A stretch of 64,000 bases of DNA from Alphaproteobacteria bacterium (GTDB lineage: Bacteria > Pseudomonadota > Alphaproteobacteria > UBA7887). The stretch spans positions 159,633-223,632 of the forward strand of contig JASLYQ010000001.1 in the NCBI GenBank assembly GCA_030739735.1. The letters are read 5' to 3'. The notes under the pieces are model-generated. The model was not told where the DNA came from. It made no database searches and was given only the letters and a program-made list of their open reading frames with translations. Position numbers and translations under genes: made by a program. This document shows, in pieces, positions 2,422-60,169 of this stretch. Positions within the stretch are counted from its first letter, which is position 1. Each line of letters opens with the position of its first letter.

Positions 2422-3182
2422 AACTGTACACGCTGGGTCAACCCGCCATCAACGATGACATTGCTGCCGGTAATGAAGGCGGCGGCCGGGCTCGCCAGGA
2501 AGACCGCAGCGGCGGCGACTTCCTCGGGCGTGCCCATACGGCCCATGGGATTACGTGCCAGTGCACCCTGATAAATCTCGGGCTGGTTAAGGCGGCGGTC
2601 GTCCCAGACCCCGCCCTCGAAGAAGATGGTGCCAGGCGAGACTGAGTTGGCGCGCACGCCTTTCGGTGCCAACTCATTGGCGAGATTCGAGACATAGGTG
2701 ATCAGCGCCGCTTTAATGGCGTTGTAAGGGCGCGCGCCACCGAAGAACTCGAGCGCGGCGATACTCGAGATGGCGACGATAGCTCCCGCGCCTGCGGCCT
2801 CAAGATGCGCGCGCGTGGCGTCTACGGCATTGAGCGTGCCGAGAATATCGCCCTCGAAGGCCTGCCGCCAGCCGGCCTCATCCTGGGTCAGTCCGAAGCC
2901 GCTGACATTGGCCACGAGAATATCGATACCACCGAAAGCTGTGGCACTGTCATCAGCCCAGCCCACGACAGCATCTCGCTCGCGCACGTCGAGGGCACTA
3001 CCGCTAGCCTGGCCCGAACTGATGCCCGCCAAGGCTTTCACTTCCACCGCCACTGCGTCCGCATTGCGAGCACAGATAGCCACGTCGCAGCCCTCACCAG
3101 CGAGCCCACGCGCGATCGCCTGTCCGATGCCACGCGTGCCTCCAGTGACCAATGCTCGTTTTCCTGCCAGACCAAGATTCAT
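2418..3182 (-). CDS. SDR-family NAD(P)-dependent oxidoreductase
   Basis: N-terminal Rossmann motif ALVTGGTRGIGQAIA. Length 254 aa. Typical SDR catalytic YxxxK region (NAIKAALITYV). Confidence 0.85.
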   Translation of the reverse strand: MNLGLAGKRALVTGGTRGIGQAIARGLAGEGCDVAICARNADAVAVEVKALAGISSGQASGSALDVRERDAVVGWADDSATAFGGIDILVANVSGFGLTQDEAGWRQAFEGDILGTLNAVDATRAHLEAAGAGAIVAISSIAALEFFGGARPYNAIKAALITYVSNLANELAPKGVRANSVSPGTIFFEGGVWDDRRLNQPEIYQGALARNPMGRMGTPEEVAAAAVFLASPAAAFITGSNVIVDGGLTQRVQF

Positions 3183-3200
3183 GTGTCCCTGTCCTTTCTC

Positions 3201-4043
3201 TCAGGTGCCCTTTGTCGCCGGCTTTCTGGTCTCGAGAAAATCGTCGAACTCGGCCTGCGTCTTAGCCGCATTAGCTTTTATCTGCCGCGCCACGTCCTCA
3301 GTCTGAATCATCGCCGCCTGCCAAGTGGCGATGTGGTTTAGGCCGTCATCGATGCTGTGGTCACGGGCATAATTCAGCATTTGCTTGGTCCCGGTAATGG
3401 CCAACGGCGACTTGGCCGCGATATCTGCGCCCATCTCCATCGCCGCGGCGAGTAGCACCTCGGCATCGTCGTGAACCGAATTCACCAGGCCCACCGCGTG
3501 CGCCTCCTCGGCCGACAGTGGCCGGCCCGTATAGGCCAACTCGCGCACCAAGCCGGCGGGCATCAGATGGGGCAGACGCTGCAGAGTGCCTACATCCGCA
3601 GCCATCCCGATATTGATCTCCTGGATGCGGAAATAGGCATCCGCCGAGCACAGCCGAATATCGCAGGCCGAGATGAGATCTACGCCGCCGCCGATGCAGG
3701 CGCCCTGTACGGCAGCGATGACCGGAATGCGGCAACGGTCGATCACGGAAAAGCTCTTCTGCATGTCGAGCACGCTGCGCCGCAGCCGCTCGCCGCGCCG
3801 ACCGGCATCGCCTTCGCAGTCAGCGAAGGATTCCATGACACTGAGTTCGAGGCCGGCAGTGAAGTGGCGGCCGGTCGAGGAGATGATAGCGGCGCGCACC
3901 GCCGCATCGCTGTCGACGGCGTCGAACACCGCAACCATGTCACGCCAGAACGGCAGAATCATGGTGTTGAGCGCCTCCGGCCGGTTGAGTCGGATATGCG
4001 CGACGTGATCTTTGACCGTAAGGGTCAAGGTCTCATAGGGCAT
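3201..4043 (-). CDS. enoyl-CoA hydratase/isomerase (crotonase) family protein
   Basis: 280 aa. Crotonase-fold hallmarks (HIRLNRPEALNTM…, oxyanion-hole region AAVQGACIGGGVDL). Confidence 0.85.
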   Translation of the reverse strand: MPYETLTLTVKDHVAHIRLNRPEALNTMILPFWRDMVAVFDAVDSDAAVRAAIISSTGRHFTAGLELSVMESFADCEGDAGRRGERLRRSVLDMQKSFSVIDRCRIPVIAAVQGACIGGGVDLISACDIRLCSADAYFRIQEINIGMAADVGTLQRLPHLMPAGLVRELAYTGRPLSAEEAHAVGLVNSVHDDAEVLLAAAMEMGADIAAKSPLAITGTKQMLNYARDHSIDDGLNHIATWQAAMIQTEDVARQIKANAAKTQAEFDDFLETRKPATKGT

Positions 4044-12013: not shown

Positions 12014-13162
12014 CTACAAACCCATCTGCCGCGCCGCGAGGTCGCGCATGATTTCTTCGGCGCCACCGCCGATGGCATTCACGCGCACCTCGCGGTAGAT
12101 GCGTTCGACCTTCTGGCCCCTCAGATAGCCGGCGCCACCGAAGGTTTGCACGGCCTCGCGAGCGCAGAACTCCATAGTCAGCGTTGCCTGGTTCTTGAGC
12201 AGGCAAATCTCGGCGACCGGGTCTTCTCCGTGGTCGATGCGCCAGGCGAGGGCTTCCAGCCAGGCCTGGGTCGCCTTGATGCGCATCGCCATGTCGACCA
12301 GCTTATGACGAACCACCTGGTGATCGATGAGGCGCTTGCCGAAGGTTTCGCGCTCCCGAGCATAGCCAACCGTCTCATCGAAGCAGACCTGGGAGAAGCC
12401 GTTGCACCCAGCTGCCATCATCAGCCGCTCGAAGTTGAAGTTCTGCATGATGATCTTGAATCCCTGGTTCTCCGCGCCGATGAGGTTCTCCGCCGGCACG
12501 CGCACATCGTCGAAATAAAGTGTCGCGGTATCGGAGGCGTGCCAGCCCATCTTCTTCAGCGGTGTGCGCGAAAAACCCGGCATGTCGGCCTCTATCAGCA
12601 ATAGGGAGATGCCGTGCATGCCCGCGCCGCCGGTGCGCACTGCCGTGGTGATGTAGTCGGCCTGAAGTCCCGAGGTAATGAAGGTCTTACTGCCCTTGAC
12701 GATATATTGCTTGCCCTCGCGCCGCGCCGTGGTCCGTAGGTTGGCGACATCAGACCCGCCCGTCGACTCGGTGATTGCCAGCGCCGCGATCTTCTCGCCC
12801 GCCAGAACCTCAGGCACGACACGCGCCCTCACCGCGTCCGTCGCCGCCCGGATGACCGGCGGCAGGCCGATGGCATGGCTGCATAGGCTGGCCGACACGC
12901 CACCGGCGCCAGCGCGCGCGAGCTCTTGTGCAGCGATGATCATGCTGAAGTGATCTGCCATCGCGCCCCCAGCCTTGACCGGGTGATAGGCCGCGATAAG
13001 CCCAATCTCACCGGCCTTGCGGAAAAGCGTGCGCGGCAGGCGCTCGGCATCCTCCCAGGCTTCGACGTTGGGATCAACCTCCATCTCGACAAAGCGGCGC
13101 AGGCTATCGCGCCAGACCTCGTGATCAGCGGTGTAGTACGGACTTGGTATCATGACCGACAT
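12014..13162 (-). CDS. acyl-CoA dehydrogenase family protein
   Basis: 382 aa. ACAD N/M/C domains. C-terminal QTFGGAGY…YREVRVNAIGGGAEEI. Confidence 0.85.
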   Translation of the reverse strand: MSVMIPSPYYTADHEVWRDSLRRFVEMEVDPNVEAWEDAERLPRTLFRKAGEIGLIAAYHPVKAGGAMADHFSMIIAAQELARAGAGGVSASLCSHAIGLPPVIRAATDAVRARVVPEVLAGEKIAALAITESTGGSDVANLRTTARREGKQYIVKGSKTFITSGLQADYITTAVRTGGAGMHGISLLLIEADMPGFSRTPLKKMGWHASDTATLYFDDVRVPAENLIGAENQGFKIIMQNFNFERLMMAAGCNGFSQVCFDETVGYARERETFGKRLIDHQVVRHKLVDMAMRIKATQAWLEALAWRIDHGEDPVAEICLLKNQATLTMEFCAREAVQTFGGAGYLRGQKVERIYREVRVNAIGGGAEEIMRDLAARQMGL

Positions 13163-13366
13163 CCCTCCGATGAGCGGAAGTCACTATAGGACGGTTGCGA
13201 CTGCACGGCACTGTCTAACAGCTAAAATATTCTTACATATTACTAGTATGCCAATAGAATGCTCATAGAGGTCTGACTCAATTTTGGATTCCAATGGCTT
13301 GCCCACACTAGAAGCACAGTACAGTGTGACGCGATCGACGCGCGCGGCGGGATAGGCGAAAGAACC

Positions 13367-13996
13367 CTACCCCCGTTTCTCCTCCGTCCATTTCGGGCGA
13401 GGGTGGGTGATGATAGTTTCGACGGGAGAATAGTCGAGATAGCCAAGCCGGCCAACGGGGCGTAGCTTATTCCAGGCTACTATCCCGTTCTCGATCACGC
13501 GGTCGTCAATATGAATGCCTATGACCTCGCCAAATACCACGCTGTTGTCGGCCGGTGCGATTGAGCGCAGGCGCGTGGTCTGCACGTAGCGGCATTCGAG
13601 ATGCACTGGGCTACCGGCCACGCGCGGCGGCCTGACCACCTTGGACGCCTCGGTCTGTAGCCCAGCATAAGCAAATTCGTCGACCTCGTGCGGCGCCGGC
13701 ACTGAGGTGGCGTTCATGGCCTCGACAAGCTCTTGCGTGACCATGTTGACCACAAACTCACCCTGCGTTTCAACATTATGCACGGTGTCCTTGAGCCCGC
13801 CCTGCTCGTGGTGGCCAGAGGCCGCGAACATCACGTGCGGCGGCGTGTAAGAGAGCGCATTGAAGAACGAATAGGGCGCTAGGTTGACATTGCCGTCGGT
13901 GTCCATCGACGAAATCCAGCCGATCGGTCGCGGGACGACAAGGGCGTTAAACGGATTATGCCGCATACCATGCGGCTCGCCGGGCTTGTAGAACAT
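13367..13996 (-). CDS. flavin reductase family protein (NAD(P)H:FMN oxidoreductase-like)
   Basis: 209 aa. Flavin_Reduct domain signature PRPIGWISSMDTDGNVNLAPYSFF. Confidence 0.8.
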   Translation of the reverse strand: MFYKPGEPHGMRHNPFNALVVPRPIGWISSMDTDGNVNLAPYSFFNALSYTPPHVMFAASGHHEQGGLKDTVHNVETQGEFVVNMVTQELVEAMNATSVPAPHEVDEFAYAGLQTEASKVVRPPRVAGSPVHLECRYVQTTRLRSIAPADNSVVFGEVIGIHIDDRVIENGIVAWNKLRPVGRLGYLDYSPVETIITHPRPKWTEEKRG

Positions 13997-14060
13997 GCCT
14001 TCCCTCCCACAAAGAAAAGCCCCTCCCGCCGCGACGGCGGGAGGGACCGAATTTGTGCGC

Positions 14061-15245
14061 TTAGTTGACCTCGAACAGGCCGGCCGCGCCCATGCCGCCG
14101 CCGATGCACATGGTCACAACCACGTTCTTGGCGCCGCGGCGCTTACCTTCGATAAGCGCGTGGCCGGTCAGCCGAGCGCCGGACATGCCATAGGGGTGCC
14201 CGATAGAGATGGCGCCACCGTCGATATTGAGATTTTCGTTGGGGATGCCGAGCTTGTCGCGGCTGTAAATTACCTGCACCGCAAAAGCCTCGTTGAGTTC
14301 CCAGAGATCGATGTCATCCATGGTCAGGCCGTTGCGCTCCAAAAGCCGGGGTACAGCATAGACCGGCCCGATACCCATCTCGTCGGGCTCCAGCGCCGCG
14401 ACACTGAAACCGCGGAAAGTGCCGAGCGGCTCAAGGCCGCGCTGCTCGGCGAGCTTGGCATCCATCACCACGCAAGCCGAAGCACCATCCGAGAGCTGGC
14501 TGGCATTGCCGGCAGTGATGAAGCCACCCTCGCCGATCACCGGTTGCAGGCCCGCCAGGCCTTCCAATGTCGTGCTCGGTCGGTTGCCCTCGTCCTGCTC
14601 CAAGGTCACCGCCTGTTCGCTAGTCTCGCCGGTTTCCTTGTCGGCAACGATCTTGACGCTCGGTAGCGGCACGATCTCATCATCAAAGCGTCCAGCCTGC
14701 TGCGCCGCCGCTGTGCGCATCTGGCTTTGCAAGCCGTATTCGTCCTGGACCTCACGGCTAATACCATAGCGGTCGGCCACCACCTCGGCGGTCTGGATCA
14801 TGCTGTAGTAGATCTCGGGTTTGTGCTCGTCTAGCCATTCGTCATGGCCGCGATAACTGTTCTGGTGGTCGTTCTGCACCAGGCTAATTGAATCGAGACC
14901 ACCGGCAACCATCACCGGCACGTTGTCAACGATTACTCGCTGCGCCGCCATGGCAATGGTTTGCAGACCCGATGAACAAAAGCGATTGACCGTGGCACCG
15001 CTAGTGGTCACGGGTAGGCCCGCACGCAGCACCGCCTGGCGGGCAATATTGCCACCGGTGGCACCTTCCGGGATAGCACAGCCGAGCAACACGTCCTCAA
15101 CCTCCTCCGGATCGACGCCGGCACGCTCGACCGCATGCTTAATCACATGGCCGCCGAGTTCGGCACCGTGGGTGTTGTTGAAGGCACCGCGATAGGCTTT
15201 GCCGATCGGCGTACGTGCGGTTGAGACGATGACGGCTTCACGCAT
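14061..15245 (-). CDS. acetyl-CoA C-acyltransferase (thiolase I/II family)
   Basis: 394 aa. N-terminal [12 protein letters not shown]. Active-site regions NRFCSSGLQ and C-terminal CIGGGMGAA. Confidence 0.9.
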
Positions 15246-15275
15246 GACTGCACTCCCATTGTGATAGCGTATCGG

Positions 15276-17366
<2,091 letters not shown>

Positions 17367-17693
17367 GAGGCCCGCGTCCTTTGCAAGAATGGGAAAGCCC
17401 CGGCAAGAAAGCCCGCTGGGCACCCCGCGTCAATCGCTAATGCGGAAGGGCCGGTCTGCGCTCAGCGTATTGACACAGCCCACGCGGTTACATTGCGCGA
17501 GGCAGGAGCAAGCCGCGCCATCTGATGCGACTGCTTCAGGCGCCAGTAGGGAAGGGAACCGGCGTGACTGAGGACGAAGGGTAAGCGGGTATAACTGACC
17601 CCGTGCTCGCCGGATATTCGCCCCGCGGTTGGGACTTGCCGCCTGACCTAGGGCCGAATGTTGCGGCAAACTACTGATCTCAAGTAACACTTT

Positions 17694-18551
17694 CTACGCC
17701 GCACCCAGCCTTTTCAAATATGAGTAAACACGGGTGAAGTCGGCGCCCGGCATGGCGTCGTGCATGGCAGCGAGAGTCTCGCCCACTTGCCGCGCGACCT
17801 TTTCGCGGGCGCCGATGCGCTCGGCTTCAGCCAGATAGAGCGCCACGTCCTTGCTCAGGAGATCAACCGTGAAGCCAGCATCGTAGCGGCCGTTCAATAT
17901 GCGGGTCGGAAATTTATCTGACGTGGCCGTGTTTTGGCCGCTGGAGACGTTGAGCACGTCGATGATCACTTTTGGGTTGAGCCCGTGCGCCTCGCCGAAC
18001 AGCACGACCTCGCTGGTGGCAACCATAGCGACGCCCGAGAGCAGATTGTTGAGCAGCTTCATGGTCTGGCCCTGGCCCGGCGCGGGGCCGATGTAGAAGA
18101 GATTCTTGGCCATGGTCTTGAGCGCCGGCGTGGCGCGCTCAAACTCTGCGGACTCGCCCGAGACCATCATCGCCAGGGTGCCCCGCACCGCTCCGCGGGT
18201 GCCGCCCGAGACCGGCGCATCGAGATAGGTGATACCGGCTTCGGCCAGCAGCCCGTGTACGCGCACTGCCGCTTCCGGGCCGATGGTCGAATGGTCGAAC
18301 ACACAGCCCGTCCAGCCACTCTCCACGATCTCGCTTGCCACTGCCTCGACCGCCGAGCCATCAGGCAGTGACAGCAGCGCCACACCAGCACCGGCCAGCG
18401 CCTCCGCCACCGAGTCGGCGGCCGTGCCGCCATCGGGCAGCCGCTCGGCCGTGCCCGCGGCATCGTACCCGATCAGAGCATAACCGGCGTCCGCCAGCCG
18501 CGCCGCCATACGCGCGCCCATCTGCCCGAGCCCAATAAAGGCGGTGCGCAT
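17694..18551 (-). CDS. NAD(P)-dependent oxidoreductase, 3-hydroxyisobutyrate / 6-phosphogluconate dehydrogenase-like family
   Basis: Start at MRTAFIGLGQMGARMA (Rossmann motif). 285 aa. Confidence 0.8.
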   Translation of the reverse strand: MRTAFIGLGQMGARMAARLADAGYALIGYDAAGTAERLPDGGTAADSVAEALAGAGVALLSLPDGSAVEAVASEIVESGWTGCVFDHSTIGPEAAVRVHGLLAEAGITYLDAPVSGGTRGAVRGTLAMMVSGESAEFERATPALKTMAKNLFYIGPAPGQGQTMKLLNNLLSGVAMVATSEVVLFGEAHGLNPKVIIDVLNVSSGQNTATSDKFPTRILNGRYDAGFTVDLLSKDVALYLAEAERIGAREKVARQVGETLAAMHDAMPGADFTRVYSYLKRLGAA

Positions 18552-18625
18552 GGTTTTGCTCCTCACTTGCATGCTTGGTTCAGACCGTGCCAGCTTAGCA
18601 GCCGCATATTGCAGGGAGGAAGCCC

Positions 18626-19090
18626 GTGAGAGAGATCGAAAGTTTCGAGGCCATGCGCGCCCTGGTCGGCGAGGAGCTTGGCGTCAGCAGCTGGGTCGAT
18701 GTGACCCAGGAACGTATCGATAAGTTCGCCGAAGCAACGGGTGACTTCCAATGGATCCACGTGGACCCAAAGCGTGCCAAGACCGAGCTGCCGGGGGGCA
18801 AGACTATCGCCCACGGCTATCTCACGTTGTCACTGGTGCCGATGATGATGTACGAGATCTACAAGATCGTCAACGTCACCCACGGGCTGAACTACGGCGC
18901 CAATAAGATTCGCTTCACAGCGCCGGTGCCAGCGGGCGTGCGCGTACGCGGGCGCCTGCGCATCAAGAACACCGAGGACATGCCCAATAACGGCCTCAAG
19001 ATCTTCGGCGAGGTCACGGTTGAGATAGAAGGCGCTGAGCGCCCCGCCTGCGTGGCGGAAACAATCAGCGTGGCCTACAGCGCCACTTAA
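18626..19090 (+). CDS. MaoC-family (R)-specific enoyl-CoA hydratase/dehydratase
   Basis: 154 aa hot-dog fold. FQWIHVDPKRA…GKTIAHGYLTLSL motif. Confidence 0.85.
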   Translation: MREIESFEAMRALVGEELGVSSWVDVTQERIDKFAEATGDFQWIHVDPKRAKTELPGGKTIAHGYLTLSLVPMMMYEIYKIVNVTHGLNYGANKIRFTAPVPAGVRVRGRLRIKNTEDMPNNGLKIFGEVTVEIEGAERPACVAETISVAYSAT

Positions 19091-19136
19091 GCCGCGGCGA
19101 ATGTAGGTTGTGCCTTGGATCGAGTTACAAGAATAC

Positions 19137-20627
19137 CTAAGTCTGTAACCGCTCGCGTAAAGCGACCTTGACCACCTTACCATAGTTGTTCTTAGGGAGC
19201 TCGTCGATAGCAAGGTAGGACTTAGGGCGCTTGAAGCGAGCAATGTTTTCCAAGCATAGCACATCCAGCGCCACGGGGTCGATGTCGACCCCCTTTTGCA
19301 TGACCACGAAGGCCACTACCTCTTCGCCCCATTCGGGATGAGGGCGCCCAACCACCGCAGCTTCGCGCACATCGGCGTGGCGCAGCAGCACTTCCTCAAC
19401 CTCACGCGGATAGATGTTGCTGCCGCCCGAAACGATCATGTCCTTTGAGCGGTCACGCAACGTCAAAAAGCCATCTTCATCGAGCACCCCGACATCGCCC
19501 GTGCGCAGCCAGCCGTCGCGCAGGGCCTCGGCTGTCGCTTCCAGATCGTTCCAGTAGCCGAGCATAACCGCAGGCCCCTTGACTTCGATCTCACCCACCT
19601 CGCCCGCCTCCAGCGCCTGGCCATCCTCGCCGGTGATGCGCAGCTCGACCGCGCTTTCCGCGAGGCCGACCGATGACAGGTACTCACGCGACTCGTGCCA
19701 GCGGCGACTCAGCGCCGTGATGGTCATGGGCGATTCAGCCTGGGCGTAGATCTGGATAAAACGCTGACCCATGACTGCGATAGCCTTCTCGATATCGGCG
19801 AGATACATTGGCCCACCGCCATAGATCACGGACTTGATGCCGTCGCCGTCCATGCCGCGCACCTTGGCCGCATCCACTAGGCGACGCACCATCGTCGGGG
19901 CCGCAAACAGCGAGACGTTGCGCAAGGTTTGGGCTAGATCCAGAACCTCGGCTGCGTCAAAGCCGCCGGACGCGGGCACGACGTGGCGGGCGCCGGCGCG
20001 CACGTTCTGAAAATTGTAGACACCGGCGCCATGCGACATGGGCGCGGCATAGAGGATAGCGTCGCTGGGCGCGATCGCCTCGACGTCCATGACATAGCAC
20101 AGCGCCTGCACGACGAGATTGCCGTGCGACAGCATAACGCCCTTTGGCCGGCCCGTGGTACCGGAGGTATAGAACAGCCAGGCGAGATCATTCTCTTTGC
20201 GTGATAACGGCCGTGGTGGTCCCTTGCCTTCCCGCATCACAGCATGCGCCGACTCGTCTACGGAAAGGACGGTGGCGTCGGTATTCAGCACAGCCGCGGT
20301 GGTAGCGTCGCAATAGACAACCTTGCAGCCCGCATTATCGAGAATCCACTCCGCCTCGCGGGGATGCAGCTTGGCATTGATTGGTACCACCGCCGCGCCC
20401 AGCCACCAGATGCCGTAAAGCACTTCGAGATACTCGATGCGGTTCTTCATGAGGACGCCTACGCGGTCACCAGAGACAACGCCGTAATCACGCGCCAGCC
20501 CACCCCCCAGCGCCGAAGCGCGACGGGCAAATTCCTGATAATCCGCCACCATCCTCTGGCCACAAAACAGTGCTGGCGCCTCTGGGCGCGTGTGGGCGGT
20601 GCGATATAACCACTCAGCTAGATTCAT
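19137..20627 (-). CDS. AMP-dependent acyl-CoA synthetase/ligase
   Basis: 496 aa. AMP-binding motif LFYTSGTTGRPKGV. C-terminal KSYLAIDELPKNNYGKV. Confidence 0.85.
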   Translation of the reverse strand: MNLAEWLYRTAHTRPEAPALFCGQRMVADYQEFARRASALGGGLARDYGVVSGDRVGVLMKNRIEYLEVLYGIWWLGAAVVPINAKLHPREAEWILDNAGCKVVYCDATTAAVLNTDATVLSVDESAHAVMREGKGPPRPLSRKENDLAWLFYTSGTTGRPKGVMLSHGNLVVQALCYVMDVEAIAPSDAILYAAPMSHGAGVYNFQNVRAGARHVVPASGGFDAAEVLDLAQTLRNVSLFAAPTMVRRLVDAAKVRGMDGDGIKSVIYGGGPMYLADIEKAIAVMGQRFIQIYAQAESPMTITALSRRWHESREYLSSVGLAESAVELRITGEDGQALEAGEVGEIEVKGPAVMLGYWNDLEATAEALRDGWLRTGDVGVLDEDGFLTLRDRSKDMIVSGGSNIYPREVEEVLLRHADVREAAVVGRPHPEWGEEVVAFVVMQKGVDIDPVALDVLCLENIARFKRPKSYLAIDELPKNNYGKVVKVALRERLQT

Positions 20628-20633
20628 AGCCGG

Positions 20634-21410
20634 CTACATGGCCGTAATGCCGCCGTCGAGCACGAATTCGGTGCCGGTCATAAACTTCGATTCATCAGAG
20701 GCCAAATAGACGATACCCCAGGCGATGTCGTCGGGCTCGCCCATATGGCCGAGAGGAATCTGGCGCTCGAGCTTGGCCTTGGTCTTGGCGGGATCGGGTG
20801 AGCCCTCGTACATGGCCTTGACCATGGGCGTGTCGATAAAGGTCGGATGCACCGAGTTGCAGCGGATGTTGTAGCCCTGGCGCGCGCAATAGAGTGCGAC
20901 AGATTTGGTCAGCAGCCGCACCGCACCCTTGCTGGCGTTGTAGGCGGCGAGGTTGTGGCCACCGATCAGCCCCGAGACAGACGAGATGTTGACGATCGAA
21001 CCACCCGCCCCGTCCTCGCGCGAGGTCTGCTTGATCGCCGCGACACCGTACTTACAACCGAGAAAAACGCCGTCTGAATTGACCGCCTGGGTGCGTGTCC
21101 AGTCCTCGAACGAGGTCTCCTCGACATTGCCCATCTCTGCGATGCCGGCGCTGTTGACCAGCACATCGAGGCGGCCATGACGGGTTAGCGCCACCTCAAC
21201 CACCGCCTGCCAGCCGGCCTCGTGGGTGACATTATGCTCGAGAAACAGAATGTCGCCGCCTATCTCCGCCGCCACCGCATGGCCCGCTTCGGCCTGGATA
21301 TCGGTAATCACTACCCGCGCACCCTCCTCTACCATGCGCTCGGCACTGCGCCTGCCGATGCCCGATGCCCCGCCCGTGATCAATGCGACCTTGCCATCCA
21401 ACCGTGCCAT
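20634..21410 (-). CDS. SDR-family oxidoreductase
   Basis: VALITGGASGIGRRSAE Rossmann motif. NISSVSG…YNASKGAV catalytic region. Confidence 0.85.
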   Translation of the reverse strand: MARLDGKVALITGGASGIGRRSAERMVEEGARVVITDIQAEAGHAVAAEIGGDILFLEHNVTHEAGWQAVVEVALTRHGRLDVLVNSAGIAEMGNVEETSFEDWTRTQAVNSDGVFLGCKYGVAAIKQTSREDGAGGSIVNISSVSGLIGGHNLAAYNASKGAVRLLTKSVALYCARQGYNIRCNSVHPTFIDTPMVKAMYEGSPDPAKTKAKLERQIPLGHMGEPDDIAWGIVYLASDESKFMTGTEFVLDGGITAM

Positions 21411-21495: not shown

Positions 21496-22392
21496 ATGAG
21501 GGACGCCGTGACCACAACACCATCAGCCGCAGACACACACCCGCGCCAGCGCGCGACGGTGCTCGATTCCGAGATCACTTATGTCGATACCGGCAAGACG
21601 GACGGCCGCCCGTTGGTGTTCCTACACGGTAATCCGACCTCGTCCTATCTCTGGCGCAATATCATTCCGCACCTGGCCGAGGGCAATCGGTGCTTGGCAC
21701 CGGATTTGATCGGCATGGGCGATTCCGGTGGCGCGTCGAACGACGACTACAGCTTTGCCACCCACGCGCGTTATCTCGATGCCTGGCTTGCAATCATGGA
21801 CCTGCGCGATACAGTCTTGGTAGTGCATGACTGGGGTTCAGCGCTGGGCTTCCACTGGGCCTATCGCAACCAGGACCGAGTCGCCGGCATCGCCTACATG
21901 GAAGCCTTGGTACGCCCGGTCCGCTGGGCCGACTGGCCCGACAGCGCACGCGAGTTCTTCCAGGCGCTGCGCTCGCCCGCAGGCGAGGAAATGGTACTGG
22001 AGAAGAACCTATTCGTGGAGGTGCTGCTGCCGCGCGCAATATTGCGCGGGCTGACGGATGCTGAGATGGCGCACTACCGCAAGCGCTACACGCAGCCCGG
22101 CGAGTCGCGCCGCCCGACGCTGACTTGGCCGCGCCAGATCCCTATCAATGGCGAGCCGGCAGACGTGGTGGCCATCGCCGAAGCCTATTCAGCGTGGATG
22201 GCGGCAAGCGACCTGCCCAAGCTTTTCATAAATGCCGAGCCCGGCAGCATCCTCGTCGGCGAGCAACGCGAGTTCTGTCGCGCCTGGCCCAACCAGACCG
22301 AGATCACGGTGCCTGGGCTGCATTTCATCCAGGAGGACTCGCCTGATCAGATCGGCGAGGCGGTGAGCGACTTCGTAGCGCACCTCGGCTAA
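21496..22392 (+). CDS. haloalkane dehalogenase, HLD-II subfamily (LinB/DhaA/DmbA-like)
   Basis: 298 aa. LVFLHGNPTSSYLWRNIIPH (halide-stabilising Asn-Trp), nucleophile HDWGSALG, GLHFIQEDSPD catalytic His. By my recollection of those sequences, it is near-collinear with LinB/DhaA over the cap and core domains. Confidence 0.9.
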   Translation: MRDAVTTTPSAADTHPRQRATVLDSEITYVDTGKTDGRPLVFLHGNPTSSYLWRNIIPHLAEGNRCLAPDLIGMGDSGGASNDDYSFATHARYLDAWLAIMDLRDTVLVVHDWGSALGFHWAYRNQDRVAGIAYMEALVRPVRWADWPDSAREFFQALRSPAGEEMVLEKNLFVEVLLPRAILRGLTDAEMAHYRKRYTQPGESRRPTLTWPRQIPINGEPADVVAIAEAYSAWMAASDLPKLFINAEPGSILVGEQREFCRAWPNQTEITVPGLHFIQEDSPDQIGEAVSDFVAHLG

Positions 22393-22782
22393 GGCGTTGC
22401 ACGAGACTGGCTGTTTTTCTCATCTTCGGCCAATACAAGTCTTTGACTATTAAACAAAAATCTGTACCTAGCTTATTTCGTAATTCCCGGTGCCACACGT
22501 TCGGTGACCAGGAGATAGACTCCGGCGAACAGAGAATTCACTGACTGGCACCTAGCCCCTCGTCCGGCAAATGAAGGGGCACGCGGAGAAACGGAGGATT
22601 CGCGTTTGACGGATTTGATGAGGGATGCCAGTCAACGGCGGTACCGATCAGACGCAATACCTTCGCGCTGCCACGAGGGAGGGCGCCGGAAGACGCCGAA
22701 TGTGATCGCCGGAATCGCAAATGGTACTCGCCCTTGCAAAGCGCCCGCGGCCCTGCCCACAATGTGCCACGGGAGGGCGATT

Positions 22783-23091
22783 ATGCGTAGTCATCATGAT
22801 ATGGGCGGTGAGCCGGCCGGGCCAGTCGAGATCACCGAGGACGACTACGACGTCTGGGAGAAGCGCATCGACGCGCTGCTTTCCTTGCTCATCCAGGAAG
22901 AGAAGATCATGCGCGTCGACGAGCTGCGCCGCGGCATCGAGGCACTGGCGCCAAATGCCTATGCGTCTTTGAGCTATTACGAGCGCTGGATTGCCTCCAT
23001 CGCCGCTATTCTCGTCGAAAAAGACGTGCTGGGTCAGGACGAGGTCGACGCGCGCGTGGCTGTAGTGGCGGCGCGGGAGGGCGAAGCATGA
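22783..23091 (+). CDS. nitrile hydratase-like beta subunit, N-terminal half encoded as a separate polypeptide (ScnB/ToyK/L-like)
   Basis: 102 aa from the ATG at 22783, preceded by a GGGAGGG RBS (the six-frame ORF extends upstream to 22606). MRSHHDMGGEP…WEKRIDAL…YYERWIASIA aligns with the NHase beta N-domain (YDVGG…WEK…YYWHWI). The stop overlaps the next start (ATGA). Confidence 0.75.
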   Translation: MRSHHDMGGEPAGPVEITEDDYDVWEKRIDALLSLLIQEEKIMRVDELRRGIEALAPNAYASLSYYERWIASIAAILVEKDVLGQDEVDARVAVVAAREGEA

Positions 23092-23387
23092 GTCGCTTTG
23101 CCGTCAGCGAGCGCGTACAGGTCGCCTTCCACGACCCGCCCGATACCCCGCGCAAGCCGCATCTGCGCACGCCCTGGTACGTGCGTGGCAAAAGCGGTGA
23201 GATCGAGCGCATCTGCGGCGAATTCCGCAATCCCGAAGGCCTGGCCTATGGTGAGGACGGCCTGCCCAAGCAGACACTGTATCGCGTACGGTTCTCCCAA
23301 TCCCATCTCTGGCCAGATTATGCGGGCCCGGCTCACGACTGCGTCGAGGTCGAGATCTACGAGCATTGGTTGGAGCGGACGTCATGA
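23088..23387 (+). CDS. nitrile hydratase-like beta subunit, C-terminal half as a separate polypeptide (ScnA/ToyL/K-like)
   Basis: 99 aa. WYVRGKSGEIERI…LYRVRFSQSHLW…DCVEVEIYEHWLE aligns with the NHase beta C-domain (YVRGKTGTV…LYTVRF…ELW). ATGA overlaps on both sides. Confidence 0.75.
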   Translation: MSRFAVSERVQVAFHDPPDTPRKPHLRTPWYVRGKSGEIERICGEFRNPEGLAYGEDGLPKQTLYRVRFSQSHLWPDYAGPAHDCVEVEIYEHWLERTS

Positions 23388-24007
23388 GCGACGAAGTCAG
23401 GCACCGTCACGGTGTCCACGATCCTCATTACCGCCACCTCGCGATCGCGGTGCACGAACTGCTTGTCGAGAAAGGCGTGCTGAGTGAGGATCGAATTGAC
23501 CGCCAGATCGTGCGCATGGATGCACGTAGCCCGGCCGATGGTGCTCGCATGGTGGCCCGTGCCTGGACCGACCAGGCGTATCGCGCCCGCATGCTCGCTG
23601 ACGGTAGCGCCGCGGCCGAGGAAATCGGTCTCGTCGTCGACGGTACCCTGTTGGTGACAGTCGAAAATACGGACGCGGTGCACAATCTTTTCGTCTGCAC
23701 ACTTTGCTCCTGCTATCCGCGCTCGATTCTCGGCTTACCGCCGACCTGGTACAAGGCGCCGGAATACCGCAGACGGGTGGTGCGTGAGCCGCGCAAGGTG
23801 CTGGCCGAGTTCGGCGTCAGCGTGGCGGATGACGTCGAGCTGCGGGTGCACGATTCCACCGCCGATATGCGCTATATTGTACTGCCACGCCGACCCGACG
23901 GCACCGAGGGCTGGAGTGAGGACGCGCTTGCCAAGCTTGTGACCCGGGACAGCATGATCGGCGTTGGTCTGCCTTTGTCGCCGGAGACCGCACAAGCGGC
24001 AGAGTAG
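23384..24007 (+). CDS. nitrile hydratase-like alpha subunit, cobalt type (VCTLCSCY metal-binding motif)
   Basis: 207 aa from the ATG overlapping the upstream stop. Matches NHase alpha: AWTDQAYRARMLADG, NLFVCTLCSCYP…LGLPPTWYK, EYRRRVVREPRKVL, LVTRDSMIGV. The Thr and Tyr in the Cys cluster are the Co-type signature. Confidence 0.85.
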   Translation: MSDEVRHRHGVHDPHYRHLAIAVHELLVEKGVLSEDRIDRQIVRMDARSPADGARMVARAWTDQAYRARMLADGSAAAEEIGLVVDGTLLVTVENTDAVHNLFVCTLCSCYPRSILGLPPTWYKAPEYRRRVVREPRKVLAEFGVSVADDVELRVHDSTADMRYIVLPRRPDGTEGWSEDALAKLVTRDSMIGVGLPLSPETAQAAE

Positions 24008-24016
24008 GGCACAAGC

Positions 24017-24637
24017 ATGCTCAAGGTTTGGGGGCGGCGCAACTCGTCCAACGTACAGAAGGTGCTGTGGTTTTGCGACGAGGCGGCGCTACGCTTCAAA
24101 CACGAGGAGATCGGCGGCGAGTTCGGCCGTACCGCCGATGCCGACATGCTGGCGCGCAATCCCAATGCCCGCGTCCCCACCATTGAAGATGATGGTTTCG
24201 TGTTGTGGGAGAGCAACGCCATCCTGCGCTATCTCGGAGCAAAATATGCCTCCGGTGCCATGTTTCCGACCGAGCTCAAGGCCCGGGGCGATGCGGACCG
24301 CTGGATGGACTGGCAGCAATCTACGGTACTAGCACCGCTGACCACCATCTTCTGGGGTCGGGTGCGAACGCCCGAGGCCTACACTGAAGAGCAGATCGCG
24401 CAAGCCGAAACGGCGGCCGTGCAGCTCTGGAAGATTCTCGATACCCGCCTCAAGGGACGTGACTGGATCATGGGCGATACATTTACCATTGCCGACATAC
24501 CGCTCGCCATCCTCGCCTGGCGTTGGTTTTCGCTGGCCAAGGAACCGCCTACCATGGCGGCGCTTGACGCCTGGTTCGTGCGTATCCGTGCGCGTCCCGC
24601 ATTTGAGGCCCGCGTCTCCAGCATACCGCTCACCTGA
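24017..24637 (+). CDS. glutathione S-transferase family protein
   Basis: 206 aa starting 9 nt after the NHase alpha stop. Thioredoxin-like N-domain (KVWGRRNSSNVQKVLW…RVPTIEDDGFVLWESNAILRYL) and helical C-domain. Confidence 0.8.
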   Translation: MLKVWGRRNSSNVQKVLWFCDEAALRFKHEEIGGEFGRTADADMLARNPNARVPTIEDDGFVLWESNAILRYLGAKYASGAMFPTELKARGDADRWMDWQQSTVLAPLTTIFWGRVRTPEAYTEEQIAQAETAAVQLWKILDTRLKGRDWIMGDTFTIADIPLAILAWRWFSLAKEPPTMAALDAWFVRIRARPAFEARVSSIPLT

Positions 24638-24678: not shown

Positions 24679-26358
24679 ATGCATGACTTGGTAATTAAAA
24701 ATACCGTCATTTACGACGGCAGTGGCGAAGCGCCGCAACATGCCGCGCTCGCCGTTAGCGAGGGCCGTATCGCGGAAATCGGTAGTGATGTTGGAGCCGG
24801 CCGCGAGGTTGTCGATGCGGAAGGCTTGGCGCTGGCGCCGGGTATCATCGACACCCACACCCATTACGACGCACAGGTCACCTGGGACCCCTGGCTAGAC
24901 CCCTCCTCACGTCTCGGCGTGACCACGGTGGTGATGGGCAATTGCGGCTTTACCGTAGCGCCCTGCAAGCCGCAGCACCGTGCGGCCACCGCACGCAATT
25001 TATGTAACGTAGAAGGCATGTCGATCGAGGCCTTGCGCGAGGGCATGCGCTGGGAGTTCGAGAGCTTTGGCAACTATCTAGATCATTTGGAGAGCCGTGG
25101 CGTTGGCCTCAATGTTGCGTGCTTTGCAGGCCATTCCTCGATTCGCACCTGGGTGATGGGCGACGACGCTACCGAGCGCGCGGCCACTGCGGACGAGATT
25201 GCGGCCATGGCAGACCTGGTGCGCGAGGCGATGGCAGCCGGCGCTATCGGCTTCGCTACCTCGACTTTCGAGGGCCACAACGGCGCCGGTGGCGTGCCCA
25301 TGCCCTCGCGGCTGGCAAAACAGGACGAGTTGCAAGCGCTCGTCGTCGCCATGGCCGAGGGCGACCGCGGCACCTTCATGCTCACGCGCGGCTCAGGCTC
25401 GCGGCTCAGCTTTCTCGAATCCCTTGCCGAAATGGCGCGGCGGCCGGTAATCGTCGCAGCGCTACTGCACAATCCTTTGAACGACCAGACAACGACGCGC
25501 GCAATGCAAAAGATCGCCGAGGCCAACAGCCGCGGGCGCGAGCTTTACGGCCAGGTCTCCTGCTGCCCGCTGACTTTGGATTTCACCTTGTACAACCCGT
25601 ACATGATGGAGGCGTTCGACTCCTGGAAGCCAATCATGGAAGCGGAGCCGGAAGACCTGCCACGCCTGTATCGCGACCCGGAGCTACGCGCCGCCGTGAA
25701 AGCCGAGATCGCCGAGCCGGGAAAAATAACCGCGTTCACCGGGGACTGGAGCGGCATCAAGGTCGCCGAGGTCGCGAACCCCGCCAACCGCGACAAGGAG
25801 GGTCGCGATACTGCCGACCTGGCAGCGGAGGCGGGCGTCGATCCACTCGACTGGATTCTCGACTTCGGTCTCAGCGAGGACATGAAAACGACCTTCGCCT
25901 CGGTGCTCTTAAACGCCGATAGCCAAGCGGTGGGTAAGCTGCTCAGCGACCCCTACAGCACGATCGCCTTGTCGGACGCCGGCGCACATCTCACCTTCTT
26001 TTGCGACGCCGGCTTCGGGCTGAATCTCTACGGCAGCTGGGTGCGCGAGCGTGGTCTGTTTTCGTTGGAGCGCGCAATCTACGAGATGACCGGCCGCCAG
26101 GCGGACATCTACCGTATTCGCGGCCGCGGGCGCCTCAGGCCCGGCGCTTGGGCCGACATGATGCTGTTCGACCCGACGACCGTAGCGCGGTCGCCCAACC
26201 TCCGCGTCCACGACCTGCCGGCCGGCGCCAGCCGCCTGGTCTATGATGCCAAGGGCCTGCACGGCGTCTGGGTCAATGGCAGCCACATTGCCGATGCTGG
26301 GGGCCTCATCACCAACGGCGCGTTGCCCGGCATGGTAATCCGTAAGTTCGATAGCTAA
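24679..26358 (+). CDS. N-acyl-D-amino-acid deacylase-family amidohydrolase (Amidohydro_3)
   Basis: 559 aa. Metal-binding GIIDTHTHYD…VTTVVMGNCG, characteristic of D-aminoacylase-type amidohydrolases. Confidence 0.8.
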   Translation: MHDLVIKNTVIYDGSGEAPQHAALAVSEGRIAEIGSDVGAGREVVDAEGLALAPGIIDTHTHYDAQVTWDPWLDPSSRLGVTTVVMGNCGFTVAPCKPQHRAATARNLCNVEGMSIEALREGMRWEFESFGNYLDHLESRGVGLNVACFAGHSSIRTWVMGDDATERAATADEIAAMADLVREAMAAGAIGFATSTFEGHNGAGGVPMPSRLAKQDELQALVVAMAEGDRGTFMLTRGSGSRLSFLESLAEMARRPVIVAALLHNPLNDQTTTRAMQKIAEANSRGRELYGQVSCCPLTLDFTLYNPYMMEAFDSWKPIMEAEPEDLPRLYRDPELRAAVKAEIAEPGKITAFTGDWSGIKVAEVANPANRDKEGRDTADLAAEAGVDPLDWILDFGLSEDMKTTFASVLLNADSQAVGKLLSDPYSTIALSDAGAHLTFFCDAGFGLNLYGSWVRERGLFSLERAIYEMTGRQADIYRIRGRGRLRPGAWADMMLFDPTTVARSPNLRVHDLPAGASRLVYDAKGLHGVWVNGSHIADAGGLITNGALPGMVIRKFDS

Positions 26359-47946: not shown

Positions 47947-49719
47947 TCAGTTGAAGTGTAGCGCTGCCGGGGGTAGGTGGTCGGCGTCAAGGCAGCACCA
48001 ATCGGCGACTTCAATGCCAAGGTCGGCGAACAGTGGACGCAGAATGGCAACGCGGCGAAAGGGGGCATTGCCGAGGGCGTCGCTGTCACCGGCGCGGCTG
48101 CGCGCGGCAAGCCCCTCTATCGCGGCCTTGAGCGTGGCGAAGTCGTCGGCCATGGCGACAGTCGCGGCGCCCTCGCCAGTGATGTTCCAGGACAGACTGA
48201 CGGAAAGCCAGGCATCGCCCGCGGCGGAGCGCGCGCCAAGGCCACTCACAGTGTCGCGCAGGGCAAAGGTCGCCCGCCAGTTTTCGCCGTCGCGGCGCAA
48301 ATTTCTGTCCTCGACGGCCAGGCCGGCAGGCGCCGCGGAATCGGAGCGCAGCCGCGCAACGCTGCCACTGCCATCGCCGCGCAAACGCCCGCGCAGCACC
48401 AGGCTACCGTCAGCAAAAGGCTCGCAAGTGAAGCCGAACTCGTCGCCGTCGGCGCGCACCGCGCACGGTGTCACCACCTCGCGGACCACTGTGGCGCCGT
48501 CGCGCAGGCGCGCATCGAGGCGCTGGATATCCACCAGGGCCATGAAGTTACCCAGCCCGGCAATGGTCTGGCTCACCCAGAAGGGCTCGACAGACGGCAT
48601 GCCGGCAAAGGACGCCGGCACTCCCCAAACGCTCTCTGGCCGCCGCTCATAGAGCGGCTCGTAGGTATCGTCGAATTGCAGCAGAGCGGGCGTGACCAGC
48701 GCCCTGAGCTCAGCGAGATCCATCTCGCCGTCCACGCGGCCAGTGCCGTAGCCGGCTTCTGCAAATGGGTCGTAGTCCGCGAGATCTGCGCTAGCGAGGG
48801 CGGCCCCTGCAGGGAAGCGTGCCTGCCAGCCCGCCACGACAGAGGCGGCGAAACGGTCGCGCGCGCCGTCGCCCGCCTCGGCAAGCTGGTAACCGCTGGT
48901 TAGACGGTAACGCAGCGCCGCCACCAGACCGTCGCGCCGGCACCCCACCGCATCCTCCGAGGCCTCGCACGCCTGTTGCCAAGCCGCCTGATAGGCGACG
49001 AAATAATTGGCGCGATTTGTCGACTCGTCAAAGGATTCGGGAATGTCGAATGGCACCGTGGCATCGATACCGTAGAAACGCTCGCTGGTATGGCGCAGCA
49101 ACGCCGCCACCTTAATGTTCGTATTGCTCTCGGCCCAGGGGCGGTCGGCATAGATCAGCGCATGGTTATGGTGGCAGGCGAGGCAGAGCCCGCGGTCAAC
49201 ATAGCCCACCGTGGGGTTACCGCCTTCACGGTAATCGCTGATGACCTGATAATCGAAGCGCCCGGCGGCCTCATTGTAGCTGATCGCCTCGACCGAGTTG
49301 GTGCGCGGCTGATAGCCGAGATAGAGCCTGTCCTTCATCATCAGACCCGATTCCCCCGCGGTGGGCGCCGGCTCTGTATCGACGGCACCGACCGCCCGCG
49401 GGTAGCGGAAGAAGTCCGGCTCAGCCTCGTGGCGGTGCAGAGAGCGGCCGATCGGGTGCAGTACCCGCTTTATGGGCTCCCGGAATCCGGGTCCAAGCCG
49501 CGCGGCGATGCGCTCGATTAACGCCTCAAAGGGATAGGGTGCGACGATCTGCCAATCGCCATCGACCTCCTCGGCCAGTACGAAGTCGAGCAGCGAGCGC
49601 CCGACCGGCGGCAGGTCCGGTCCGCGATTAGCTTCCGAGGTTAGCGCTTCGGGCTCGGCCAGTACCGGCGCCACAAAGGTTAGTACCAAGAGTATTGGGA
49701 AAAGTTGTCGCATCACCAC
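47947..49719 (-). CDS. exported hypothetical protein with a single CXXCH haem-c-type motif
   Basis: 590 aa. N-terminal signal peptide MVMRQLFPILLVLTFVAPVLAEP. CLACHH at about residue 186. No other family recognised. Confidence 0.6.
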   Translation of the reverse strand: MVMRQLFPILLVLTFVAPVLAEPEALTSEANRGPDLPPVGRSLLDFVLAEEVDGDWQIVAPYPFEALIERIAARLGPGFREPIKRVLHPIGRSLHRHEAEPDFFRYPRAVGAVDTEPAPTAGESGLMMKDRLYLGYQPRTNSVEAISYNEAAGRFDYQVISDYREGGNPTVGYVDRGLCLACHHNHALIYADRPWAESNTNIKVAALLRHTSERFYGIDATVPFDIPESFDESTNRANYFVAYQAAWQQACEASEDAVGCRRDGLVAALRYRLTSGYQLAEAGDGARDRFAASVVAGWQARFPAGAALASADLADYDPFAEAGYGTGRVDGEMDLAELRALVTPALLQFDDTYEPLYERRPESVWGVPASFAGMPSVEPFWVSQTIAGLGNFMALVDIQRLDARLRDGATVVREVVTPCAVRADGDEFGFTCEPFADGSLVLRGRLRGDGSGSVARLRSDSAAPAGLAVEDRNLRRDGENWRATFALRDTVSGLGARSAAGDAWLSVSLSWNITGEGAATVAMADDFATLKAAIEGLAARSRAGDSDALGNAPFRRVAILRPLFADLGIEVADWCCLDADHLPPAALHFN

Positions 49720-50008: not shown

Positions 50009-50095
50009 GCCCCTGTGGTGGAATTGGTAGACACGACAGACTCAAAATCTGTTGTCCGCAAGGACGTGTCGGTTCGAGTCCGACTGGGGGCACCA
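50009..50095 (+). tRNA. tRNA-Leu (anticodon CAA)
   Basis: 87 nt. Acceptor stem GCCCCTG/TGGGGGC, D-arm GTGGAATTGGTAGAC, anticodon loop CT-CAA-AA, long variable arm (type II), T-arm GGTTCGAGTCC, encoded CCA. Confidence 0.85.
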
Positions 50096-53907: not shown

Positions 53908-54450
53908 TCAGTTAGGCTCTGGCCAGTATAGCAGGAAGCCGTCACGGTTCGGCATCTTCACACCAGGCAGGCTATCGGCATCCATGACCTGGCCGTCCTT
54001 GATGATGCCGTTCAAGCTCAACAGGTATGCCGTGACCGCATAGACATCGTCATTGCTGAGCGACATCGGCCGATCATAGGGCATGGCACGGCGCACGTAG
54101 TCAAAAATAGTGGTGGCATAGGGCCAGTAGCTGGCTATGGTTTTCACCGGCTTGTCGCCGGCTAGAGAATCGATGCCACCGGCAAGTGCATCAGCAAATT
54201 TCTCGCCGCCCCTGGCGCCCCCGCCATGGCAGCGCCTGCAGTGCTGATGGTAGACGTGAGCGCCGCGTTCGGCATCACCCCTACCGGGCGGCAAGGTGGC
54301 ACCGTCGGGCGCGATGCTGATATCCCATTTAGCGACCTCTTCCGCCGATACCGGCTCGCCCAGCTCTGGACCGGGCTCAGCGAGAACGGGACTGGCAACA
54401 AGCAGGACCACGGCCAAGGTCGAAAGCGTGCAACGATCAAATATAGACAT
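53908..54450 (-). CDS. monohaem cytochrome c, sulfite dehydrogenase partner subunit (SorB/SoxD-like)
   Basis: Start at MSIFDRCTLSTLAVVLLVASPVLA (signal peptide), overlapping the sorA-like stop by 14 nt. Single CRRCH haem site. Confidence 0.7.
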   Translation of the reverse strand: MSIFDRCTLSTLAVVLLVASPVLAEPGPELGEPVSAEEVAKWDISIAPDGATLPPGRGDAERGAHVYHQHCRRCHGGGARGGEKFADALAGGIDSLAGDKPVKTIASYWPYATTIFDYVRRAMPYDRPMSLSNDDVYAVTAYLLSLNGIIKDGQVMDADSLPGVKMPNRDGFLLYWPEPN

Positions 54451-55735: not shown

Positions 55736-55749
55736 CGGTTCTCCTCCTT

Positions 55750-57837: not shown

Positions 57838-57922
57838 AAGGATCCCCTACGTACCTGTCGCCCGCAATGGCAGTGGCCGTTGCATAGCAAAGATGGGTGG
57901 GCACGCAAAGCGCCGTTTTCCC

Positions 57923-59959: not shown

Positions 59960-60169
59960 GGGGCCCGGGACGGATACGGCTTTGCTGTGCCCTTGTCGAG
60001 AGTTAAGCCGGTGCAAGGATCGGCTGAGCGAGAATCCACAGGCTCAGGACCGAGTATGCGACCATCAGCAGCAGCAGTGGCAATTGCGCGAGATTGCGCG
60101 CGCCCCGAGGTGGGAAGAACGCCGGGTTGTCACGCCTAGAACCTAGGACCCGGCCAACCGATATCGTCG

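Follow-up and report, generated by a model that had tools for sequence, protein, structure and literature searches.

The question raised by this locus is whether three consecutive open reading frames (ORFs) in a 64,000-nucleotide stretch of alphaproteobacterial DNA (contig JASLYQ010000001.1; the whole stretch is called the window below) encode a cobalt-type (Co-type) nitrile hydratase (NHase) whose beta subunit is supplied as two separate proteins, or the remains of an ordinary two-subunit enzyme. All three lie on the + strand. The first, betaN, runs from 22783 to 23091 (ATG to TGA; 102 amino acids, aa; 11.4 kDa), the second, betaC, from 23088 to 23387 (ATG to TGA; 99 aa; 11.6 kDa), and the third, alpha, from 23384 to 24007 (ATG to TAG; 207 aa; 23.1 kDa). 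Consecutive ORFs are joined by ATGA stop/start overlaps, betaN/betaC at 23088–23091 and betaC/alpha at 23384–23387, which the sequence and ORF list place exactly, to the base, where the initial annotation of this DNA had put them. The three genes are a translationally coupled betaN-betaC-alpha unit of the Co-type NHase family, and we consider it very probable that they specify a functional enzyme of three polypeptides, with the mechanism outlined below.

Translation signals read from the sequence accompany each start codon. A Shine-Dalgarno-like GGGAGGG lies 5 nt 5' of the betaN start (22771–22777, +), and the same motif recurs within the end of betaN, 6 nt 5' of the betaC start (23075–23081, +), while a purine-rich GGAG resembling a ribosome-binding site precedes the alpha start by 8 nt (23372–23375, +). 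An Rfam scan revealed no regulatory RNA in the 390-bp gap 5' of betaN, its sole match in the window being a distant tRNA gene (50009–50092, +), and scans for promoters and terminators gave background level only.

Profile and Structure Searches

Searches with Pfam and NCBIfam profiles agree with the initial annotation, which had assigned the two small ORFs to the N- and C-domains of NHase beta and the third to an alpha subunit with a VCTLCSCY cluster. In Pfam, betaN matched PF21006 (NHase_beta_N; E = 2.8e-21, profile positions 1–102 of 115), betaC matched PF02211 (NHase_beta_C; 2.5e-16, positions 11–97 of 98), and alpha matched PF02979 (NHase_alpha; 9.3e-79). Against the 226-position NCBIfam model of the whole beta subunit (TIGR03888, nitrile_beta), betaN covers positions 1–100 (E = 1.4e-18) and betaC positions 138–225; one beta subunit is thus divided between the two small proteins. 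The linker of the canonical subunit (about 37 residues, model positions 101–137) is absent from betaN and betaC rather than interrupted, and betaN opens directly at the conserved HHDMGG motif. Described as domains, betaN is the N-terminal helical domain of NHase beta in stand-alone form, and betaC is the SH3-like C-terminal domain. With both small proteins placed in the NHase beta family, the proposal of a split subunit survives the profile check to which the initial annotation had exposed it.

The alpha protein passes the cutoff of the NHase alpha equivalog model (TIGR01323; 257.7 bits vs. 249.85), yet falls far under that of the model for the gamma subunit of thiocyanate hydrolase, SCNase (TIGR03887; 206.5 bits vs. 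291.45). In PDB searches the closest solved structures for all three chains were Co-type NHases. Alpha scored up to 215 bits against Co-type NHase alpha chains, betaN matched NHase beta chains as well as SCNase beta, and betaC matched residues 129–217 of P. putida NHase beta and also SCNase alpha. SCNase was the only split-beta structure to turn up in these searches, which returned no split-beta NHase structure. The agreement of the locus with NHase families is far beyond chance.

Distribution of Split-Beta Loci

A sequencing error or a pseudogene, the outcome that the initial annotation had named as the main threat to its proposal, was considered and rejected. The same three-ORF layout is found in four independent metagenome assemblies, the exact 102-aa betaN protein turns up in 179 data blocks, and in each of the 74 complete loci, taken from different species, distinct betaN and betaC ORFs precede alpha in that order. 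With start codons picked automatically, the betaN/betaC junction shows some overlap in 60 of these 74 loci and the 4-base overlap in 40. Junction spacing across the family ranges from –14 to +68, with one value of +1038. At one locus (L069) a gene of about 270 aa (~1 kb, 3075–4033), lysozyme- or peptidoglycan-binding-like by eye, stands between betaN and betaC; the two halves evidently can do without direct linkage.

The family is large. A word-indexed search with betaN returned 1285 homologs, the best 120 of which are all stand-alone proteins of about 100 aa (96–143 aa) carrying PF21006 only. When one genome per species was scanned, a stand-alone betaN relative was found in at least 539 species genomes, mostly from uncultured Alphaproteobacteria (Rhodospirillales, Stellaceae), Burkholderiales, and Gammaproteobacteria; a single cultured organism, Vineibacter terrae, is among those listed. 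Searched exhaustively, 1.84 billion cluster representatives yielded 285 betaN clusters (50% identity) at E ≤ 1e-10, and the best 150 of these are mostly 100–150 aa long. Some relatives depart from the common form: P0121 (201 aa) is a tandem betaN-betaN fusion, P0145 (283 aa) has betaN joined directly to alpha, and P0126 and P0158 have the look of gene calls with a frameshift.

Bootstrapped neighbor-joining trees of alpha sequences separated canonical two-subunit enzymes from the split-beta and SCNase-like alphas in 199–200 of 200 replicates, with canonical sampling that is small (three enzymes) and with a sequence set that omits both toyocamycin NHase (ToyJKL) and the Streptomyces canus enzyme AnhDEA. 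Judged from these sequence comparisons, three-subunit NHases belong to a clade of their own, large and conserved, apart from the two-subunit enzymes. The window trio is a further three-subunit, activator-less Co-type NHase, within a large proteobacterial subfamily.

Catalytic Residues and Substrate Pocket

The VCTLCSCY motif occupies alpha residues 104–111 (window 23693–23716), and the slightly longer run V104-CTLCSCYP-R113 (23693–23722) keeps all four candidate metal-site residues, Cys105, Cys108, Ser109, and Cys110. A Thr/Tyr signature in this motif marks Co-type NHases, and Ser/Thr marks the Fe-type. Two beta arginines and a tyrosine (betaArg52, betaArg157, and betaTyr68 in P. thermophila) contact the oxidized cysteines and the catalytic water. 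Mapped by HMMER coordinates and by aligning annotated NHases with MAFFT, these residues are divided between the two small proteins, with betaN R49 corresponding to betaArg52, betaN Y65 to betaTyr68, and betaC R27 to betaArg157. R49 sits in the L48-R49-R50 portion of a DELRR motif (22918–22932, +) and Y65, placed by alignment, within SYYERW (+); R27, the second active-site arginine (codon 23166–23168, +), belongs to the motif HLRTPWYVRGK, which is kept across the family. All three residues are invariant or nearly so in 75–83 family members.

Three positions past the last cysteine, alpha carries an arginine (R113) that is present in nearly all of the 72 distinct motif variants of the family (the exceptions are Lys in two and Val in one), and also in the plasmid-borne split enzymes from Planktothrix, Streptomyces, and Agrobacterium, whereas two-subunit NHases have Trp or Phe there. 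We take this position to be that of SCNase gammaArg136, which fits the evidence from PDB chains: the P. thermophila mutant chain 3vyh_A carries exactly CSCYPR, and on the CSCYPR segment wild-type SCNase gamma (2dd4_C) outscores the mutant chain 3vyg_C. Yamanaka et al. reportedly found in 2013 that two arginines, gammaArg136 and betaArg90, control SCNase selectivity. The position of the second, equivalent to P. thermophila betaPhe51, is occupied by Leu in betaN (Leu48) and almost throughout the family, by Lys in the trios from Streptomyces and Agrobacterium, and by Arg only in an SCNase-like Roseomonas protein, in a mapping based on HMMER coordinates and this Roseomonas homolog rather than on the T. 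thioparus sequence. The pocket thus appears to hold one of the two SCNase arginines, with R113 as a probable mark of the clade rather than of thiocyanate use.

Proposed Assembly and Cobalt Insertion

We infer that alpha would bind Co(III) through Cys105, Cys108, Ser109, and Cys110, and that cysteines 108 and 110 would be oxidized to sulfinate and sulfenate, respectively, as in all NHases. Beta would be supplied as two separately translated halves, with betaN contributing Arg49 and Tyr65 and betaC contributing Arg27, and the ATGA coupling together with the internal ribosome-binding sites may favor roughly equal amounts of the chains. The most likely assembly is (betaN-betaC-alpha)2, which would hydrate R-CN to R-CONH2.

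As to cobalt insertion, neither an accessory protein nor CbtAB, HoxN, an amidase, an aquaporin, or DUF302 was found in the window at E < 0.05, and no examined locus of the split-beta clade has a separate activator gene adjoining the structural genes. The betaN protein itself weakly matches the NHase accessory-protein model (TIGR03889; E = 0.0098). Moreover, the accessory protein of a Rhodococcus Co-type NHase (L089, 3557–4003) aligns at 28–34% identity to betaN in 12 loci of the family (L009, L011, L015, L028, L038, L046, L052, L057, L060, L071, L074, and L083), and these sequence matches suggest an evolutionary link between accessory proteins and free betaN halves. In ScNHase, the three-subunit enzyme of S. 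canus CGMCC 13662, the N-half AnhD acts as a metal and self-subunit-swapping chaperone via an AnhD2A complex (PMC7329996). Because of the accessory-protein matches and these AnhD experiments, betaN likely doubles as a cobalt-insertion chaperone, and free betaN most likely also serves in subunit swapping, as AnhD does.

Neighboring Genes and Possible Substrates

The window is chromosomal, with htpG, purH, and glycosyltransferase genes upstream and a G+C content of 62%. Pfam and NCBIfam bear out the dehalogenase, GST, and amidohydrolase neighbors named by the initial annotation. The first of these, a haloalkane dehalogenase of the HLD-II type (21496–22392, +), ends 390 bp 5' of betaN and matches the equivalog NF002938 with 424.8 bits (cutoff 241); the motifs HGNP, HDWGS, and GLHFIQED were read by eye. 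Its ortholog lies directly 5' of betaN in six related genomes (L005, L006/L092, L007, L018, L047, and L093), with a gap as short as 1 bp in L092. These genomes make up one moderately supported subclade of the alpha tree (131 of 200 bootstraps); the linkage is confined to it, and is therefore lineage-specific.

Only 10 bp past the alpha stop begins the gene for a GST-family protein (24017–24637, +; Pfam GST_N and GST_C), which reached no NCBIfam equivalog at its cutoff. It is probably co-transcribed with the NHase genes, and this neighbor is common only to the closest relative, L005. The gene after it encodes a 559-aa, D-aminoacylase-like Amidohydro_3 metallohydrolase (24679–26358, +; PF07969, with sub-threshold NCBIfam matches) that might be an amide-hydrolyzing partner; it adjoins the NHase in none of the other genomes compared. 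On the other side, an SDR oxidoreductase gene (20634–21410, –) is divergent from the dehalogenase-NHase unit and kept with it in the same lineage, and an acyl-CoA ligase and beta-oxidation block is likewise divergent from the dehalogenase. This block (12014–20627, –) is complete in appearance, with acyl-CoA dehydrogenase, flavin reductase, thiolase, FadB/J-like, HIBADH-like, MaoC dehydratase, and acyl-CoA ligase genes, and a block of this kind also stands beside the dehalogenase-NHase unit in L093.

Flanking genes were surveyed by all-against-all ORF clustering of 81 loci, 80 of them related and one a copy of the window locus. Recurrent neighbors across the family are SDR, HIBADH-like, acyl-CoA dehydrogenase, acyl-CoA ligase, and CoA-transferase III genes. 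Neither aldoxime dehydratase nor amidase-signature genes were found in the window annotation.

The Arg113 pocket and the dehalogenase, SDR, and beta-oxidation neighbors are what lead us to guess, with low confidence, at a small polar or omega-substituted aliphatic nitrile as the substrate, perhaps one arising from a halo-nitrile. A reasonable but weak guess would be an aliphatic nitrile with a halo or hydroxy substituent that feeds acyl-CoA metabolism. It is unlikely, though conceivable, that the DELRR/CSCYPR proteobacterial family has a dedicated substrate set by the SCNase-type arginine, which here could mean a halogenated-nitrile pathway shared with the dehalogenase (acting, for instance, on omega-haloalkanenitriles or haloacetonitriles) or else a small anionic or polar cyano compound. 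If true, this would be an unrecognized route for organohalogen-nitrile turnover in uncultured Alphaproteobacteria.

Farther along the window, a pair of paralogous membrane proteins, each about 695 aa long (54437–60016, –), carry Fer4_5 domains, one of them also FMN_bind, and resemble NosR/NirI; they adjoin a molybdopterin oxidoreductase resembling sulfite oxidase. A 590-aa ORF (47947–49719, –) with no Pfam match overlaps + strand ORFs and may be spurious or novel.

Alternative Explanations

The bare fact that betaN and betaC lie in different frames would fit a single beta gene disrupted by frameshift, misassembly, or decay, or one whose halves are rejoined by programmed frameshifting. We give this practically no credence, given the recurrence of the layout in the four assemblies and the 179 data blocks, the split in 74 of 74 species, the absent rather than interrupted linker, the separate ribosome-binding site of each ORF, and the conservation of all catalytic residues; in addition, the varied junction spacings rule out a conserved frameshift site. 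A programmed frameshift fusing the halves was also rejected on inspection of 23080–23091, where no slippery site was seen by eye. Another possibility is that betaN acts only as an accessory or activator protein (NhlE/P14K-like), so that the enzyme would consist of alpha and betaC or would receive a full beta subunit from elsewhere. Accessory proteins are similar in size to betaN, and both the weak TIGR03889 match and the alignment of the Rhodococcus accessory protein to family betaN ORFs are consistent with this, but betaN fits the beta N-domain far better (2.8e-21 for PF21006 and 1.4e-18 for TIGR03888) and has equivalents of the catalytic betaArg52 and betaTyr68 that are invariant in the family. 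In ScNHase, furthermore, AnhD is part of the AnhD2E2A2 enzyme, and activity needs both AnhD and AnhE (PMC7329996). Structural and accessory roles are not mutually exclusive, and a purely accessory betaN is in our view very improbable.

A further alternative is a three-subunit SCNase-like enzyme of the same gene order, which would convert SCN– to COS and NH3. The order betaN-betaC-alpha is like scnB-scnA-scnC, that of the SCNase genes. R113 stands at the gammaArg136 position, with the 3vyh_A and 2dd4_C evidence given above, and CSCYPR is found again in the Roseomonas protein that PGAP names scnC, a homolog of SCNase gamma. This SCNase-like alpha groups with the split-beta alphas (199–200 of 200 bootstraps), and a profile of betaN is about equally close to SCNase beta (47.6 bits) and to NHase beta chains. 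Four-of-four occurrence of the alpha arginine among the split-beta trios aligned (Planktothrix, Streptomyces, Agrobacterium, and the window) nevertheless suggests that it marks the clade and is no sign of thiocyanate use by itself, and the second SCNase arginine is replaced by Leu48, with Leu in nearly all family members where the Roseomonas protein reads EERRR. Since alpha also misses the SCNase gamma cutoff while passing that for NHase alpha, betaN (102 vs. 157 aa) has none of the 40-residue N-terminal extension, and the window annotation shows no sulfur-oxidation or COS-handling genes nearby, we regard a thiocyanate hydrolase as a very slim prospect. The sizes of the halves had led the initial annotation to a ToyK/ToyL pattern rather than that of SCNase, and rightly so, at 11.4 and 11.6 kDa against SCNase halves of 157 and 126 aa. 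ToyJKL of Streptomyces rimosus has subunits of about 10, 11, and 21 kDa (the beta halves being about 10–11 kDa), and its genes lie in alpha-first order, toyJ(alpha)-toyK-toyL, within the toy deazapurine nucleoside cluster. An analog of it, hydrating 7-deazapurines of the toyocamycin/preQ0 type in nucleoside or queuosine-related metabolism, would share these subunit sizes; against it stand the different gene order, the lack of queC/D/E, GTP cyclohydrolase, and toy-like genes in Pfam and NCBIfam scans of the long ORFs in the window, and the occurrence of the family in hundreds of proteobacterial genomes, in unrelated and mostly catabolic contexts. Toyocamycin nitrile hydratase (TNHase) is described as a three-subunit enzyme (PMC12648386). 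We hold such a function to be exceedingly improbable here.

A three-polypeptide Co-type NHase remains the interpretation that we prefer, and the following points weigh against it. The absence of transporter and accessory genes applies to the 64-kb window, and such genes may lie elsewhere in the genome. A search of the literature found neither an experiment on this protein nor a characterized or experimentally studied member of its proteobacterial subfamily, and the nearest trios compared from cultured organisms are only 40–58% identical to the window proteins. With regard to context, the dehalogenase linkage may be synteny inherited within the one moderately supported subclade that shows it, the GST and amidohydrolase partners are peculiar to this genome and the relative nearest to it, and any given flanking gene occurs in at most 12 of the 80 related loci (the best flanking clusters are in 8–12). 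Flanking genes are not kept across the family, and context therefore says little about substrate.

Relation to Known Systems

Compared with canonical Co-type NHases (P. thermophila 1IRE, B. smithii 1V29, P. putida 3QXE, and the R. rhodochrous type), the window trio has the same CTLCSCY motif and beta Arg/Tyr residues, and the alphas of plasmid-borne canonical examples are 50–53% identical to the window alpha. In contrast to the trio, these enzymes have a single beta subunit of 217–233 aa with its linker and Trp or Phe at the R113 position, and the canonical Co-type loci that we fetched have an adjoining accessory gene and often CbtAB or HoxN as well, none of which is in the window. The trio is thus not built to the canonical two-subunit plan of one beta protein of about 210–230 aa with an adjacent accessory gene, and conforms to the three-subunit plan of separate genes for proteins of about 10, 11, and 21 kDa in the order N-half, C-half, alpha, with no activator.

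SCNase (ScnBAC of Thiobacillus thioparus, 2DD4) is like the trio in its split beta equivalent, gene order, cobalt, and pocket arginine. Its halves are longer (157 and 126 aa vs. 102 and 99 aa); betaN is missing the N-terminal extension of about 40 residues, so that betaN residues 2–93 align to SCNase beta 45–136, and the trio differs further in having Leu in place of betaArg90 and in an alpha that scores under the SCNase model cutoff. The extension of the SCNase N-half builds an (alpha-beta-gamma)4 dodecamer. As the pocket arginine is common to SCNase and to the split-beta clade, the latter bears on the origin of SCNase. A Roseomonas marmotae plasmid (p1318-8; L087, 3011–6255) has the PGAP-named scnC beside a single beta-like protein of 283 aa, followed by CbtB/CbtA and a TauE sulfite exporter; by appearance it is SCNase-like with an unsplit beta, and it combines EERRR with CSCYPR. 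ToyJKL, compared by description, is like the trio in being a three-subunit cobalt NHase with two beta halves of about 10–11 kDa, and unlike it in the toy deazapurine cluster and the alpha-first order, neither of which is seen at the window locus.

Annotated trios are also present on plasmids. That of Streptomyces sp. NBC_01176 reads betaN-betaC-nthA, with genes after it for an aquaporin and a HoxN Ni/Co transporter, neither of which is in the window; its proteins are 40% (betaN), 56% (betaC), and 57% (alpha) identical to those of the window, with the same CSCYPR in alpha but EEKRR in betaN where the window has DELRR. A Planktothrix agardhii plasmid is likewise annotated betaN-betaC-nthA, and in strain PCC7805 (plasmid p1; L088, 80–5639) the split-beta NHase ends a biosynthetic-looking cluster with a TauD/TfdA dioxygenase, a NADAR protein, a GST, an asparagine synthase, and a methyltransferase. 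Matches to betaN on Agrobacterium, Rhizobium, and Burkholderia plasmids are similarly annotated. On Agrobacterium tumefaciens pAt1 (L086, 3972–7390), the one of these that was inspected, the order is circularly permuted to betaC-like (111 aa), alpha (219 aa), and betaN-like (113 aa), then aquaporin, DUF302, CbtB, and CbtA, and both small subunits are named "SH3-like domain-containing protein". More generally, the NCBI pipeline calls the small subunits by that name or "nitrile hydratase", and other sources call them "hypothetical protein", so that recognizing the family would be of use for annotation.

The initial annotation held that a split beta chain had been described only for ScnABC and ToyJKL, which implied that the arrangement was rare; neither part holds. 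The literature regards three-subunit NHases such as ToyJKL and ScNHase as oddities, yet at least 539 species genomes, mostly of uncultured Proteobacteria, carry one, to which can be added the 285 betaN clusters and the annotated trios on Streptomyces, Planktothrix, Agrobacterium, and Rhizobium plasmids. What retains interest is the SCNase-type arginine found throughout the clade, the homology of betaN and accessory proteins, and the dehalogenase-NHase operon, and for biocatalysis the family may offer self-maturing cobalt NHases with a different pocket.

As for the description of split beta chains, ScNHase already provides the same architecture in an enzyme that has been purified and assayed; it is cobalt-dependent, has no activator gene, and assembles as AnhD2E2A2 (PMC7329996). 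Encoded in the order anhD-anhE-anhA, its subunits are the beta N-half (10.41 kDa), the C-half (11.35 kDa), and alpha (21.33 kDa), and the enzyme hydrates acetamiprid, thiacloprid, and benzonitrile (PMC7329996). ScNHase is actinobacterial, unlike the window trio, and the comparison draws on its published description rather than its sequence; by that description the two have the same gene order, similar subunit sizes, and no activator gene.

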